From UHGV virus genome UHGV-0071294: a stretch of DNA of 37,551 bases, one strand, 5' to 3'. A model generated the notes under the pieces. It worked only from the letters and a program-made list of their open reading frames with translations, was not told the origin of the DNA and made no database searches. The translations under genes and the position numbers were made by a program. The DNA comes from a virus. Positions 1 to 37,551 of this stretch are shown here, piece by piece; the stretch's first letter is position 1; every line of letters starts with the position of its first letter.

Positions 1-179
1 TTTAACGACAGGCTATCTATGAACCAGCTACCTCGCCGTGCGCTTTCGCGTTATGCCCTGACTTTTCAGGGATATATCCTTTCAGTAAACTGTCAGTGCC
101 GGATGTTCACCCGTGTCCGGCGCACGCACTCCACTTCACCCGTGGAGAACTCCTTAATTACCAACCCTCAGGAGGGTGA

Positions 180-413
180 ATGTTAAAATCAACTCTTATT
201 GCTAAATGCCTTTATCAAAATCGCATGGTAAGCAGCATTTCAATAGGCGAGTCTGCAGTTAAAAGTATTTTCGAAGAGTACTTTCCCGGGCATGATTTTA
301 ATAAATGGAATACCAAATTACCGCCAGCAGTTTCAACGCGTATTCTGAAAGCAACTGAAAGAGCAAGTACAATTCGCGTTAACTATTTCATTAAAGATTT
401 GTGGGATCTTTGA
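180..413 (+). CDS. hypothetical protein (77 aa)
   Basis: ORF preceded by a strong RBS (GGAGGG about 6 nt upstream); AT-rich relative to the structural genes; no recognisable motif. Confidence 0.4.
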   Translation: MLKSTLIAKCLYQNRMVSSISIGESAVKSIFEEYFPGHDFNKWNTKLPPAVSTRILKATERASTIRVNYFIKDLWDL

Positions 414-798
414 TATCCACAGAGCCTAAAGTATGTGCATATGGATGTGCTATTGTGCGCCCTCGCAGATTTGCATCATTTTCTAAATTCACTGAACGAA
501 ACAGGGCATCAACAAGGCTCTGTACAATGCAAAGGCAATCGAAGACTGTCGCCGTTTCTGTTTTGATTGATGAAAGAACATGGCCATTCACGCAAACAGA
601 AATTACCCGTTTATTAACATCGCTTTCCTGCTTTTGATTATCAGAACCATATAGCCCAGAAAAAGCATTGCGCACATTACAAACCATATTATCGATGGTT
701 TCTTTTTTGGTGTATGCCGGGTCAATTTTCACCAGACTATCACCGAGAGTCGTTGCAGCAATTGTCTGGATTTCTTTTGGTAAATCTTTAAATTCCAT
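391..798 (-). CDS. hypothetical protein (135 aa), distal gene of the leftward operon from the repressor
   Basis: ORF with a GAGG RBS about 8 nt upstream of the ATG; AT-rich; 3' end overlaps the convergent ORF 180..413 by 23 bp. Confidence 0.45.
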   Translation of the reverse strand: MEFKDLPKEIQTIAATTLGDSLVKIDPAYTKKETIDNMVCNVRNAFSGLYGSDNQKQESDVNKRVISVCVNGHVLSSIKTETATVFDCLCIVQSLVDALFRSVNLENDANLRGRTIAHPYAHTLGSVDIKDPTNL

Positions 799-820
799 TA
801 TTAGCCTCGTTGGTTAGCTA

Positions 821-1039
821 TTAACGTGGGTATGTAATCATTCTTGCAATGCTTAATGCCGCTGCTTTTTCCAGCCTGGTGATATCCTGCTCCAGAGCGG
901 ACAGATTTTCAGCCTGCTTAGCCCTGGCTTCATTGGCCCATTTCAGATCCTGCGCTGCATTAATTTTCTGGCGCATCCACTCATAAAGTTCATCATCGGT
1001 ATAGTCTGGCGCGATGATGACGGGTTCTCGTTTCTGCAT
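821..1039 (-). CDS. small hypothetical protein (72 aa), in the position of ydfC in Qin-type prophages
   Basis: ORF co-directional with the repressor; the size and order (51, 42, 72 aa downstream of a DicA-like repressor) mirror ydfA-ydfB-ydfC. Assigned by synteny only. Confidence 0.45.
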   Translation of the reverse strand: MQKREPVIIAPDYTDDELYEWMRQKINAAQDLKWANEARAKQAENLSALEQDITRLEKAAALSIARMITYPR

Positions 1040-1068
1040 ACTGATTCCTCGCGGTGCTGTTTCGCTTA

Positions 1069-34536: not shown

Positions 34537-34538
34537 AT

Positions 34539-35027
34539 ATGGTGGATTTGCTGGGCTGGGGTGTAAACCGGCTTGAGCGCGAAGCATGGGACGCGGTGGG
34601 CTCATTAACGGATGTCGCCTCCCGCGTCATGCTGTCGTTTGGTGAGTTTGAATTCAGTATTGATACTGCTGCTTATAACGCCATGAAGCGCACGATGGAA
34701 TGGCGATGGGATGAACAACAGCTTATCGGAAAAAACGATCTGCTGCAGTATACCGGCAAGGGGGCCAGAACAATAACCCTTGAAGGTATGGCGCACGCGG
34801 GATTTCGTGACGGTGTGGGAATGGATGCCCTTGATACACTGGTTCAGATGGTGGATGACAATCCGGCCCCGCATCTTCTGGTCTCGAGCACAGGTGATGT
34901 GATGGGGTATTTCGTGGCAACCGCCTATTCAGATAACACCACGTCCTTTCTTCCCGGCGGTGCGCCGAAGAACAAAACGTTCACACTGGAGCTGAAATAC
35001 TATGGCGAAAAACTGGCGGACTACTGA
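34539..35027 (+). CDS. Tail protein U (P2 gpU-like)
   Basis: Position after the tape measure gene; ATG at 34539, 3 nt after the tape measure stop. Confidence 0.75.
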   Translation: MVDLLGWGVNRLEREAWDAVGSLTDVASRVMLSFGEFEFSIDTAAYNAMKRTMEWRWDEQQLIGKNDLLQYTGKGARTITLEGMAHAGFRDGVGMDALDTLVQMVDDNPAPHLLVSSTGDVMGYFVATAYSDNTTSFLPGGAPKNKTFTLELKYYGEKLADY

Positions 35028-35220
35028 CGGCGATATGCTGGATGACATCTGCCAGAGACACTATGGCAGTACCGGGCTTAACCAGTCACTGGCGGCGGTA
35101 CTGGAAGCCAATCCCGGACTGGCTGACCTTGGTCCGGTCTATCCGGCGGGAGTGGAAATCGTGTTGCCGGACTGGGTATATGAACCGGAAGTGAAGGAGA
35201 CGTTTCAGTTATGGGACTGA
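35002..35220 (+). CDS. Tail protein X (P2 gpX-like)
   Basis: GDMLDDICQRHYG...LEANPGLADLGPVYPAGVEIVLPD matches P2 X (GDTLDAICVRYYG...LAANPGLAELGAVLPHGTAVELPD). Confidence 0.8.
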   Translation: MAKNWRTTDGDMLDDICQRHYGSTGLNQSLAAVLEANPGLADLGPVYPAGVEIVLPDWVYEPEVKETFQLWD

Positions 35221-36299
35221 ATGAATATCAGCCGGATTTCAGTCTGACAGCGGAAGGCCAGGATATCACGAAGGCAATAAAACGTGGGCTGGCTGAGCTG
35301 CGATATACCGATAATGGTGCTGGCACAAAGCGGTCCGATGAACTGATGATAACGCTGTTCAGCGAGACGCTGGCGTTGCCACCGAAAGGCGCGGTGCTAA
35401 CGCTGGGACTGGGGTTCAACGGAAATCTGGTCAATAAAGGCAGTTTTACCGTCTGTCAGGTGGCAAGCGGTGGTCCTCCCCGCCGGCTCACCATTTATGC
35501 CACCGCAGCCCCCATGAATGCGTCAAAACATGGCGCAGACGTGACCGCACTGAAAACCCGGGCTTTCAGCGATATCACACTGGGCGACCTGGTGAAAACC
35601 ATCGCCACTGAAAATAATCTGGTGGCGCGCGTCTCATCGGTGCTTGCTGATATTCATATCCCGTGGGTGATGCAGTCATCAGAATCTGATGCTGCCCTCT
35701 TATCCCGCATTGCAGGTATGTACGGCGCCACCAGTAAACCGACCAGTGGCTACTGGTTATTTCTGGAATACGGGGCATCACAGAGTACGGGGGGCAGAAA
35801 TGCGCCCGAGATAACCATTACGCCGGGTATGGTATCAGACTGGGATTATCGTGAAGGTGAGCGACAGGGCGCTGCGGGTGGTGCGAAGGGGGATAAAAAG
35901 AGCGGGAAAGTTGGGGTCCGGTATTTTGATGCTCGTGACGGACGCACACGTGAAGTTAAAGTTGACGTGGAGTCAACAGATAAGCGGCATCCGTTTACCC
36001 AGCCTGACCAGGGCACCGCAAAACACTGTGCAGAGTCGAAGGTTAAACGTGTGCAGAAAGCCGGACGCCAGATGACGATAACGTTGCCCTGCAGGCCGGA
36101 ACTGCTGAAAGCAGGGGCGGAGATGCGTTTTGTCACGCAGGGATTTGGTGTGCGTGAGGACCATCACTGGCAGGCTGAGTCTGTGGAGTTTTCACTGGTA
36201 CCGGGACAGGGATTTACGCTGAATCTGTCACTGACCACGGATATTTCTGCAAAGGGGAAAGCCAGTGGCAAGAAAAAAGGCGTCAATTATTTTGGTTAA
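35211..36299 (+). CDS. Tail protein D (P2 gpD-like late control D)
   Basis: 362 aa, terminal gene of the P2-type tail cluster order U-X-D. Confidence 0.8.
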   Translation: MGLNEYQPDFSLTAEGQDITKAIKRGLAELRYTDNGAGTKRSDELMITLFSETLALPPKGAVLTLGLGFNGNLVNKGSFTVCQVASGGPPRRLTIYATAAPMNASKHGADVTALKTRAFSDITLGDLVKTIATENNLVARVSSVLADIHIPWVMQSSESDAALLSRIAGMYGATSKPTSGYWLFLEYGASQSTGGRNAPEITITPGMVSDWDYREGERQGAAGGAKGDKKSGKVGVRYFDARDGRTREVKVDVESTDKRHPFTQPDQGTAKHCAESKVKRVQKAGRQMTITLPCRPELLKAGAEMRFVTQGFGVREDHHWQAESVEFSLVPGQGFTLNLSLTTDISAKGKASGKKKGVNYFG

Positions 36300-36323
36300 T
36301 GTTTTCTGAATCAGGAAATAAAC

Positions 36324-37551
36324 ATGTCTGTATTAATTTCGGGTGTGCTGACGGATGGCACGGGACTCCCCATGTCCGGATACCATATTATTCTGAAAGC
36401 CCGACAGAATACATCCGCAGTGGTTATGAGAACGGTGGCAACAGTTTTGACGGGGCCGGCAGGAGAATATGCATTTGAGGCTCAGACCGGAAGATATGAC
36501 GTTTATCTTCGGTCATGTATTGAAAGAGAATATTGTGTTGGTGATATTTCGGTTTACGACGATTCAAAGCCCGGTACACTGAACGACTTTCTGACCGCCC
36601 TCGATGAAGGCGATTTAAAACCGGATGTCGTTAAGCGGTTCGAAGAACTGGTGGCGCAGGCGCAGCAGAGCGCGGAGGCGGCAGCGGAAAGCGAACGACA
36701 GGCCGGGCAACATGTCGCTGATGCGCAACAAATCAAGAGCGACTGCGAGACGCTGGCGGATAACGTACAGCAGAACGCCGAGGCCGTTGCTGAAGATAAA
36801 AGGCAGGTGGCACAGCTGGCATCATCTGCCACACAGGATGCGGCTCGCGCAGAGCAGGCCGTTAAGGACGCAGACAAAATCGTCGATAAGGCTGTTGATA
36901 AACTCGGTGAAGTCGCAACGCTGAGCGGCGAGGTAAAAGCCAGCGCCGAAGTGGCAGCAAAAAGCGAGCAGAATGCAAAAAAACACGCGGATAATGCAGC
37001 AGAAATCGCACAGCAAACCGCACAGGACGCAGAAGCCACCACAACAGCCCGTGATGATGCGGAACGTTTTGCGGGTGAGGCAGAAAACAGTGCACAGACA
37101 TCAGGGGCAGCGCGGGATGAATCGGTTGATGCTGCTGAACGTGCCTGCCAGCATAAAGAAGCAGCATCTTCGGCTGCGACCAGTGCAGAAAATGCGGCAA
37201 ATAAGGCGCAGGGACATGAAAATGCCACCGCAGAATACGCCCGGCAGGCGAAGGCCAGTCAGGATGCGAGCGAAGGCAATGCGCAGGAAGCGAAACGGTG
37301 CAGGGACGAGGCGCAGCAGATTGTTGATGACCTGAAGGGAAGTAATGCCACCACGACAGAAAAAGGCCTGGTGCAACTCTGTAGTGACACGGATAACGAC
37401 AGCGAAGAACTGGCGGCCACACCAAAAGCCGTCAAAGTCGTCATGGACGAGACGAATACAAAAGCGCCGCTGGACAGCCCGGCGTTCACCGGCACGCCAA
37501 CCACACCAACCCCGCCGGACGATGCGACCGGGCTGGAGATGGCGAACGCGG
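36324..37551 (+). CDS. Side tail fibre protein (lambda Stf-like), 5' partial view; ORF continues beyond the window
   Basis: N-terminus ISGVLTDGTG...LKARQNTSAVV...VYDDSKPGTLNDFL matches lambda Stf (ISGVLKDGTG...LKARRNSTTVV...VYEDSQPGTLNDFL); later LAATPKAVKVVMDETNTKAPLDSPAFTGTPT matches the Stf/P2 H motif. Frame is open to the end of the window. Confidence 0.85.
   Translation, partial: MSVLISGVLTDGTGLPMSGYHIILKARQNTSAVVMRTVATVLTGPAGEYAFEAQTGRYDVYLRSCIEREYCVGDISVYDDSKPGTLNDFLTALDEGDLKPDVVKRFEELVAQAQQSAEAAAESERQAGQHVADAQQIKSDCETLADNVQQNAEAVAEDKRQVAQLASSATQDAARAEQAVKDADKIVDKAVDKLGEVATLSGEVKASAEVAAKSEQNAKKHADNAAEIAQQTAQDAEATTTARDDAERFAGEAENSAQTSGAARDESVDAAERACQHKEAASSAATSAENAANKAQGHENATAEYARQAKASQDASEGNAQEAKRCRDEAQQIVDDLKGSNATTTEKGLVQLCSDTDNDSEELAATPKAVKVVMDETNTKAPLDSPAFTGTPTTPTPPDDATGLEMANA

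Follow-up and report, generated by a model that had tools for sequence, protein, structure and literature searches.

The UHGV virus genome UHGV-0071294, a stretch of 37,551 nucleotides (nt) analysed at its full length and called the window below, corresponds to the right-hand ~37 kb of an intact-looking, ~45-kb lambdoid temperate Escherichia coli prophage. It carries 25 late genes on one strand, separated by no more than 117 nt, among them a lambda-type packaging and head set, neck genes and contractile-tail genes. We put the probability at roughly 85% that a lambda-type head, a neck and a simple contractile tail are encoded here as one block, and that this block represents an old lineage and not a fresh lambda × P2 splice. 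The virion genes are confined to 16618-37551, and the virion module begins at the cos region (~16394) or, counted by genes, at Nu1 (16618). An earlier reading of this DNA (hereafter the original prediction) had stretched the virion module over the whole of 1-37551, which is too wide: bases 1-16600 hold no virion genes. They carry cI/cro-type, replication, transfer RNA (tRNA), lysis and cargo genes, as well as the gene for the Q antiterminator (10238-11059), upstream of the late block.

From position 16000 to its end, the window is 99.8% identical to a prophage of E. coli CEA224S (NZ_CP166080.1). At least 80% of this interval is present in 59 of 5426 complete E. coli genomes, so the head-tail arrangement is not a chance pattern. 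Across these 59 genomes and two attachment (att) sites, the late region is 94-99.8% conserved, with intact open reading frames (ORFs). In CEA224S, the prophage starts with a tyrosine integrase gene beside yccA, continues with lambdoid early genes and finishes with an Stf-type fibre gene, a DUF4376 gene and a tRNA-Ser gene next to hyaA, where attR lies. Since it extends from the integrase near yccA to the attR at tRNA-Ser, with one integrase and one tRNA att site, it is a ~45-kb lambdoid prophage at the serT site. Strain C012 carries a 97%-identical late region at another att site, ompW, and the late module thus moves as a unit.

A putative cos region (16394-16580, + strand, as are all the late genes described below) was located by blastn against the joined lambda ends and by comparison with PhiR12_1, a siphovirus whose record lists E. 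coli K-12 MG1655 as its host. It contains lambda-like flanking blocks, TACGGGTCCTTTCC and CGCTATTTATGAAAATTTTC, and three cosB-type CCGGACATG repeats that are common to PhiR12_1. Next come the genes for the terminase small subunit of the lambda Nu1 family (16618-17127; PF07471, E=8e-20; 88% identical to PhiR12_1 Nu1), the terminase large subunit of the gpA family (17099-19015; PF05876 and PF20454; 64% to lambda, 82% to PhiR12_1), the gpW head-tail adaptor (Ad1; 19019-19228; PF02831, E=4e-25), the gpB-family portal (19273-20796; PF05136, E=5e-95), an S49 prohead protease/scaffold of the gpC/Nu3 type (20786-22402; PF01343), a gpD-family head decoration protein (22441-22776; PF02924, E=1e-23), the gpE-family major capsid protein (22846-23874; PF03864, E=1.4e-65; 84% to PhiR12_1 E) and the DNA-packaging protein FI (23925-24290; PF14000, E=1.9e-13; 35% to PhiR12_1 FI). 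Together with the head-closure gene FII, all nine (Nu1, A, W, B, C, D, E, FI and FII; 16618-24694) match lambda Pfam families above cut-off and follow lambda order, which bears out the colinearity with lambda claimed by the original prediction. Identity to lambda is 46-64% from Nu1 to E, and identity to PhiR12_1 is 88% for Nu1, 82% for A, 74% for B, 61% for C, 73% for D and 84% for E. Within this conserved block, W forms a divergent island, with 47% identity to PhiR12_1 between flanks of 82% (A) and 74% (B), and the interval 18939-19258 around it gives no nucleotide alignment to PhiR12_1. This divergence may reflect a co-variation of W with the non-siphovirus FII. As a separate observation, Tandem Repeats Finder detected a 138-bp tandem repeat in the scaffold (Nu3-like) part of gene C (21769-22276; 3.7 copies, 81% matches), which brings the protein to 538 amino acids (aa), compared with 439 aa in lambda.

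The head-closure protein FII (Hc1; 24290-24694; PF05354, phrog_82) is 34% identical to its lambda counterpart, 35% and 31% to those of Hafnia phage yong2 and Citrobacter phage Chris1, and 44% to that of a Serratia proteamaculans prophage (locus L015), and it has no match in PhiR12_1. FII travels with the neck and tail genes, apart from those of the capsid. Both genes at 24675-25960, described earlier as poorly assignable, can now be placed in families. The first, j1 (24675-25397), encodes a putative tail-completion/Neck1 protein of the gpZ family (phrog_27, E=1.6e-28). The same PHROG also takes in lambda gpZ (3.2e-69) and the "minor tail protein Z" of Wolbachia phage WO, the j1 cluster has >1,200 member sequences, and j1 adjoins the collar gene in all relatives examined. 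No match to the PDB was obtained either by direct phmmer or with a j1 profile. As j1 belongs to the gpZ family, the colinearity with lambda extends one gene further, from FII to Z.

The second gene, j2 (25409-25960), encodes a homolog of the R2 pyocin collar PA0615. A profile built from the homologs of j2 matches PA0615 (PDB 6u5f chain A) over its full length with E=2e-14. This profile was needed, as j2 has no Pfam or NCBIfam match and direct phmmer against the PDB gave only E=0.087. According to a 2026 cryo-electron microscopy preprint on P2, the neck of that phage consists of the portal gpQ, the adaptor gpL and the terminator gpR, the last being homologous to tailocin cap proteins and compared there with the R2 pyocin collar PA0615. 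Because of the full-length profile match and the tailocin-cap homology of the P2 terminator, we assign j2, on homology, as the tail terminator/collar. The gene lies immediately upstream of V in yong2, Chris1, the Vibrio phage Vb_VaM_Valp1 (Valp1), WO and 12 other Enterobacterales species. In the window, FII and j1 overlap by 20 nt, and j2 and V by 17 nt. The neck genes of the window belong to phrog_27, phrog_1072 and phrog_82, and P2 R, S and L to phrog_65, phrog_26 and phrog_71. By family, the switch to the contractile-tail set falls between j1 and j2.

From 25944 onward, Pfam, TIGRFAM and PHROG matches from V to D substantiate the claim of a complete contractile tail. The baseplate genes come first: a spike of the P2 gpV family (25944-26567; TIGR01644, E=1.1e-19, above cut-off; phrog_9992), the gpW/gp25-family wedge protein (26601-26957; PF04965), the gpJ-family wedge protein (26932-27846; PF04865) and a gpI-family baseplate/tail protein (27839-28429; PF09684, E=8.5e-36). 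They are followed by fibre genes H and G and then by the genes for a 491-aa tail sheath (30414-31889; PF04984, PF17482, phrog_23) and the tail tube (31886-32404; PF04985, E=4e-24). The sheath is ~100 aa longer at its N-terminus than P2 FI, and it is 64% identical to the yong2 protein, 61% to that of Chris1, 46% to that of Valp1 and 35% to that of P2 (residues 101-483). Sequence reading and translation identify the genes of the tail assembly chaperones E (32464-32766; PF10109) and E+E' (32464-32903): a predicted -1 frameshift site, T_TTT_TTG at 32724-32730, lies in frame and is identical to the annotated heptamer of P2, where E and E+E' are likewise linked by a -1 frameshift, and the -1 frame is open to 32903, giving a predicted E+E' of 146 aa that overlaps the start codon of T. 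The 550-aa tape measure T (32884-34536) was recognized by phrog_3654, several other tape-measure PHROGs and its position between E' and U; it is 34-43% identical to its counterparts in yong2, Chris1 and Valp1. The set ends with a gpU-family tail protein (34539-35027; PF06995, E=3e-27), a gpX-family (LysM-type) tail protein (35002-35220; PF05489, E=1.2e-19) and the gpD-family baseplate hub (35211-36299; phrog_52, E=2.4e-95; Pfam match below cut-off; 38% to P2 D). The protein families thus add up to a full contractile-tail gene set: V, W, J, I, H, G, sheath, tube, E/E', T, U, X and D. The NCBIfam search added only a P2_V subfamily match and a below-cut-off match for FII. As megablast of the tail half against the phage collection returned matches to fibre genes alone, protein-level searches were needed for this half. 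By tblastn, no gene of the lambda tail from U to J (U, V, G, T, H, M, L, K, I and J) has a match in the window at E<=0.01, only the gpZ family being present.

Two sets of fibre genes accompany this tail. The first consists of a tail-collar fibre with a P2 gpH-type N-terminus (28426-29811; PF12571), whose C-terminal part is 76-92% identical to fibres of phiP27 and Rac-SA53, and of a gpG/Tfa fibre assembly chaperone (29814-30359; PF02413; 92% to phiP27 L55). The second starts after D with an Stf-type fibre (36324-37551; PF08400, E=3.6e-55; PF03406) that is cut by the end of the window. In the reference genome this fibre has a full length of 757 aa and is followed by the DUF4376 gene and attR at tRNA-Ser. 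The presence of an Stf-like gene here in place of ogr, for which no homolog was found, is as originally predicted. The N-terminus of the Stf-type fibre (36324-36770) is 84% identical to Rac-SA53 tail3, 63% to phiP27 L56 and 46% to lambda Stf (anchor comparison loci L011 27900-28583 and L025 22210-22893). Elsewhere in the phage collection, the PF08400 N-terminal domain is carried by siphoviruses at about 30-50% identity, Rac-SA53 and phiP27 being the exceptions, and in relatives from other genera the match is limited to the fibre-repeat segment and does not include the Stf anchor. Strain C012 has kept the anchor (81%) and has a different C-terminus. A search for direct repeats between the H and Stf genes found none.

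Both phiP27 (an Stx2e phage) and Rac-SA53 (an LT-II prophage) are lambdoid, and both provide precedents for the Stf-type fibre layout: at their ends, genes for an H-like fibre and a G-like chaperone are followed by an Stf-N fibre gene, one more fibre gene and attR. The annotated tail of phiP27 is a contractile one of the Mu type, with a DNA-circularisation protein and a Mu-like hub. Rac-SA53 annotates a baseplate protein, a lytic transglycosylase and fibre genes, with no sheath or tube annotated, and its tail is probably also of the Mu type, judging from gene sizes and order. The heads of both are not of the lambda E type, and their similarity to the window is limited to the fibre genes. These comparisons hint at a sub-family of Stf anchors adapted to contractile-tail baseplates.

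How closely the tail resembles that of P2 is a different matter from its completeness. P2 shares with the window the V, W, J, I, H, G, sheath, tube, U, X and D families, and to that extent the strong P2 motif matches of the original prediction stand. Their strength does not: identity to P2 is 26% for V, 39% for W, 41% for J, 37% for I, 22% for the tube, 33% for U and 38% for D, the highest values are 52% for H (over 67% of its length) and 51% for X, and E and T have no detectable match to their P2 counterparts. The tail is thus only remotely P2-like, at 22-52% identity. Nor do the tail genes follow P2 order exactly, as had been proposed. In P2, X lies between L and Y, Z/fun between G and FI, R and S before V, and ogr after D, whereas X lies between U and D in the window. 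Homologs of P2 Q, P, O, N, M, L, R, S and ogr were not found in the window by tblastn, and no Ogr-type TGT-N12-ACA site is present upstream of V, the sheath gene, E or Nu1. P2 also has a P2-type head and a shorter sheath protein, in contrast to the lambda-type head of the window.

Closer relatives of the neck and tail were found among other isolated phages, with yong2 and Chris1 (40-64%) ahead of Valp1 (30-51%) and P2 at 22-52%. The whole-window comparison with lambda, P2 and known hybrids, which had been suggested as a check, therefore upheld the lambda head families but placed the tail nearer to yong2, Chris1 and Valp1 than to P2. The Hafnia phage yong2 (MZ516527) and the Citrobacter phage Chris1 (ON041214) are the closest isolated neck and tail relatives and have a lambdoid genome layout like that of the window. 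Their identities are 42-43% for j1, 47-52% for the collar, 61-64% for the sheath and 40-59% for the other tail proteins. They differ in a permuted tail block (V, sheath to D, then W-J-I-H-G) and in having no Stf-N fibre. A search of the literature on these two phages found no useful electron microscopy or description.

The virion gene order of Valp1 (OR500391) is identical to that of the window from the terminase small subunit (TerS) to D: TerS, the terminase large subunit, a W-type adaptor, portal, protease, a small gene, an E-type capsid gene, Hc1/FII, Neck1/Z, a collar homolog, V, W, J, I, fibre, sheath, tube, E, T, U, X and D. The head proteins are 26-49% and the tail proteins 30-51% identical, and the small gene in the gpD position has no detectable similarity to D of the window. 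Valp1 is a telomeric prophage of Vibrio, maintained as a linear plasmid with protelomerase and ParAB, whereas the window comes from an integrating lambdoid; Valp1 further carries a PAAR gene and one additional gene downstream of V, and it has only one fibre gene and lacks Stf. By electron microscopy Valp1 is a temperate myovirus with a 60-nm head and a contractile tail of 90 x 20 nm. The S. proteamaculans prophage L015 has the full architecture of the window, with a head (Nu1-E) at 46-68% and a tail at 39-58% identity.

The combination of a lambda-like head with a contractile tail is already described. WO and the Xylella fastidiosa prophages xfp1 and xfp2 (the latter taken from published descriptions) have been published since the 2000s as hybrids of a lambda-like head and a P2-like tail, and with the Vibrio phages they show that the window is not a new lambda × P2 hybrid. 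WO carries gpA-W-B-C-D-E, a hypothetical gene, Z, a collar homolog (31%) and then V-W-J-I in the order of the window; it was compared through V-W-J-I only, as the stretch compared ends before the tail genes, which lie in a separate block. WO also has ankyrin and eukaryote-association modules, and the hosts and sequences of WO and the Xylella prophages are very distant from those of the window. The neck and tail layout of VP882 (Hapunavirus) is like that of the window at low identity. Membership of the window in Hapunavirus was considered but rejected: the architecture is shared, yet identity is only 21-44%, and this for a few proteins. The R2 pyocin of Pseudomonas aeruginosa, whose collar is homologous to j2, is headless, unlike the window with its full head module upstream. 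The order of its cluster in PAO1 (PA0615-PA0628) we take to be collar-V-W-J-I-H-G-sheath-tube-E-T-U-X-D, as in the window.

Lambda, phage 21 and PhiR12_1 share with the window the Nu1-E packaging and head genes, a putative cos with cosB-type repeats, the FI, FII and Z families and a right-end Stf-type fibre, and differ from it in FI and FII, which are highly diverged, and in the contractile-tail genes. Comparison with PhiR12_1 shows where this similarity breaks: identity falls from 84% in E to 35% in FI, FII has no match, and nucleotide similarity ends at 24044. Comparison with yong2 and Chris1 shows the reverse: similarity starts at FII (31-35%) and persists over j1, j2, V and the remaining tail genes; the heads of these two phages are of another type, with A and B at only 23-25% and a ClpP-type protease/capsid gene. 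These two independent comparisons agree and place the exchange boundary between the major capsid gene and FI/FII, at E|FI (~24.0 kb). The original prediction had set the junction at 24675-25960; the similarity break is at ~24044, at the start of FI.

Searching representative genomes with the collar alignment yielded 12 loci in seven genera (Trabulsiella, Pantoea, Serratia, Scandinavium, Enterobacter, Citrobacter and Rosenbergiella). The j1, collar and V genes are adjacent in 12 of 12. Eleven of these loci carry the other type of head, and one, that of S. proteamaculans, has the full lambda-type Nu1-E head. As j1, collar and V are kept together across loci with differing heads, FII-Z-collar-tail is the constant unit, and the capsid and packaging cassette is what is swapped. 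FII-Z-collar-tail would thus be an old and widespread neck and tail cassette that has been combined with different head cassettes. From the divergence of W, we infer that the head-tail interface proteins W, FI and FII co-vary with the tail. Two permutations of the tail genes were also observed among the relatives, V-sheath-tube-E-T-U-X-D-W-J-I-H (loci L014 and L016-L023, and yong2 and Chris1 as L002 and L003) and V-W-J-I-H-(G)-sheath to D (the window, L015 and L024). In either arrangement, V remains joined to the collar gene.

Gene families, gene order, conservation and breakpoints were read directly from these comparisons; Q-dependent expression, docking partners, morphology and inducibility belong to the following model, which draws on the lambda and P2/pyocin pathways. 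The late genes, lying as one same-strand block downstream of a lambda-type Q gene and the cos site, would be expressed from a Q-antiterminated transcript. The block itself encodes lambda-family proteins for cos packaging and the head (Nu1, A, W, B, C/Nu3, D, E and FI); a neck made of the lambda-family proteins W and FII, the gpZ-family protein and a tail terminator of the pyocin-collar type; and a simple contractile tail of the P2/R-pyocin kind with V as spike, W, J and I as wedges, U, X and D as hub, sheath, tube, the T tape measure and the E and E+E' chaperones. Its two fibre sets are H with G, and Stf with the gene downstream of it. Heads and tails would be assembled separately, as in those pathways. 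W and FII would close heads that have been filled from cos concatemers. Tails would be assembled on a hub of V, D, U and X with W-J-I wedges, and T with E and E+E' would set their length. A collar hexamer, with the Z-like protein, would cap the tail, which would then dock through the collar on the FII ring closing the W/portal stack of a DNA-filled head. The model predicts a myovirus whose decorated head is the size of that of lambda and whose contractile tail is short, ~83 nm, a length obtained by scaling Valp1 (596-aa tape measure, 90 nm) to the 550-aa T of the window.

The most obvious alternative is that a lambda-like siphovirus recombined recently, in a single event, with a genuine P2-like (Peduoviridae) phage, the joint lying at 24675-25960. 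Lambda Pfam families on the left, P2-named Pfam and TIGR families on the right, a frameshift heptamer identical to that of P2, and the identities of H (52% over 67% of its length) and X (51%) to P2 could all be read in this way. A recent P2 parent is, however, hard to reconcile with tail proteins that are 22-41% identical to P2 outside the fibre and X segments, with E and T giving no match at all, with the different position of X and the absence of P2 L, R, S and ogr, or with a terminator of the PA0615 type. Moreover, the combined order is found deeply diverged in Vibrio, in Serratia and partly in Wolbachia, and the similarity break lies at E|FI and not at the proposed joint. We therefore regard such an origin as highly improbable. 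The description of the window as a lambda/P2 mosaic survives only in part: a lambda head, a contractile tail and an Stf fibre do lie on one strand, but the closest tails are those of yong2, Chris1 and Valp1, which speaks against an origin from lambda and P2. We give equally little credence to the idea that the window joins two adjoining elements, a decayed lambda-like head remnant and an R-type tailocin or P2-like remnant, which would not form a single virion. Tailocin clusters do occur in prophage-rich regions, and the collar homolog and tail gene set resemble the R2 pyocin cluster. However, start and stop codons interlock at the supposed boundary, FII overlapping j1 by 20 nt and j2 overlapping V by 17 nt; the head and tail parts have no lysis or regulatory cassette between them, and FII-j1-collar-V is kept as a block in the bona fide phages yong2, Chris1 and Valp1. 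The whole block also moves together between serT and ompW, with all ORFs intact, and no second set of virion genes was found, as lambda tail genes and P2 head genes are absent from the window by tblastn.

It is also conceivable, though unlikely, that the architecture is right and that the prophage is nevertheless cryptic or defective, with an incompatible head-tail interface or a non-functional cos, and yields no infectious particles. The head cassette has apparently been swapped with siphovirus lambdoids (61-88% identity, with W at 47% and FII unrelated), which could have left a mismatch at the interface, and the cosN core is not that of lambda. Such decay would fit poorly with a late region that is 94-99.8% conserved, with intact ORFs, in 59 genomes and at two att sites, or with cosB-type repeats conserved with PhiR12_1; W, FI and FII are also precisely of the non-siphovirus type, as expected if the interface had been kept compatible. 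Several observations weigh against our preferred reading. Compared with lambda, the cosN core is replaced by unrelated sequence, and the lambda cosN 12-mer was not found near Nu1 within 2 mismatches, its matches elsewhere in the window being at chance level. The AlphaFold model of j1 is poor (predicted local distance difference test score, pLDDT, of 61) and gave no meaningful fold match, so that j1 is assigned by PHROG membership and conserved position only. In addition, when the j1 and j2 profiles were aligned by hhalign with individual sequences of lambda Z and U and P2 R and S, no significant similarity emerged. Finally, because the left arm is only 78% covered by CEA224S, the best reference, the exact prophage may differ from this reference outside the late region.

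From a practical perspective, recognition of the window as a lambda-type head on an old neck and tail cassette corrects a tempting misreading as a lambda × P2 chimera, and holds nothing surprising to a phage specialist. Naming j1 as a gpZ-family neck protein and j2 as a PA0615-type terminator improves annotation in many Enterobacterales prophages. The E|FI boundary, together with the diverged W, FI and FII, gives a hint as to which proteins set head-tail compatibility and could help the engineering of hybrid phages. More tentatively, and with the odds somewhat against it, W, FI, FII, the gpZ-like protein and the collar may form a small, portable compatibility set that in E. coli lambdoid prophages lets near-identical capsid cassettes (up to 88%) serve both tail types, and the Stf anchor sub-family (63-84% to phiP27 and Rac-SA53, ~46% to lambda) may suit contractile-tail baseplates, giving two independent fibre sets. 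If this is true, swapping only the W, FI, FII, gpZ-like and collar genes should retarget lambda heads onto a contractile tail.

Several further features of the late block and the left arm were noted. Terminator-like sites number 41 in all, against 17.8 expected. Four strong hairpins with T-runs on the + strand, at 22798-22822, 23879-23897, 30378-30395 and 32424-32441, directly follow the D, E, G and tube genes, respectively. Under Q antitermination, they may serve to adjust stoichiometry or to make the mRNA more stable.

The left arm, which is mosaic relative to CEA224S, encodes YdaT-like, DnaT/O-like and P-like replication proteins, a DUF968 protein and RusA, as well as holins and an M15 endolysin. 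At 7013-7983 its content is shorter and different where the CEA224S prophage (L001 10866-13321) has a Kiwa KwaB-like defence gene pair, and this interval looks like a variable cargo/defence hotspot in the early-right operon. An AraC-family regulator gene (11286-12026) lies directly downstream of the Q gene and is a possible cargo regulator that would be expressed with the late genes. Between these genes and the lysis cassette, tRNA-Thr(UGU) and tRNA-Gly(UCC) genes (12407-12560) lie within a ~920-bp stretch that is absent from the CEA224S prophage and present in the C012 relative. Between the lysis genes and cos stands a lone ORF of the K88/F4 fimbrial subunit family (15447-16274; PF02432, E=4e-48), apparently an orphan cargo gene for a fimbrial subunit within the late transcript.

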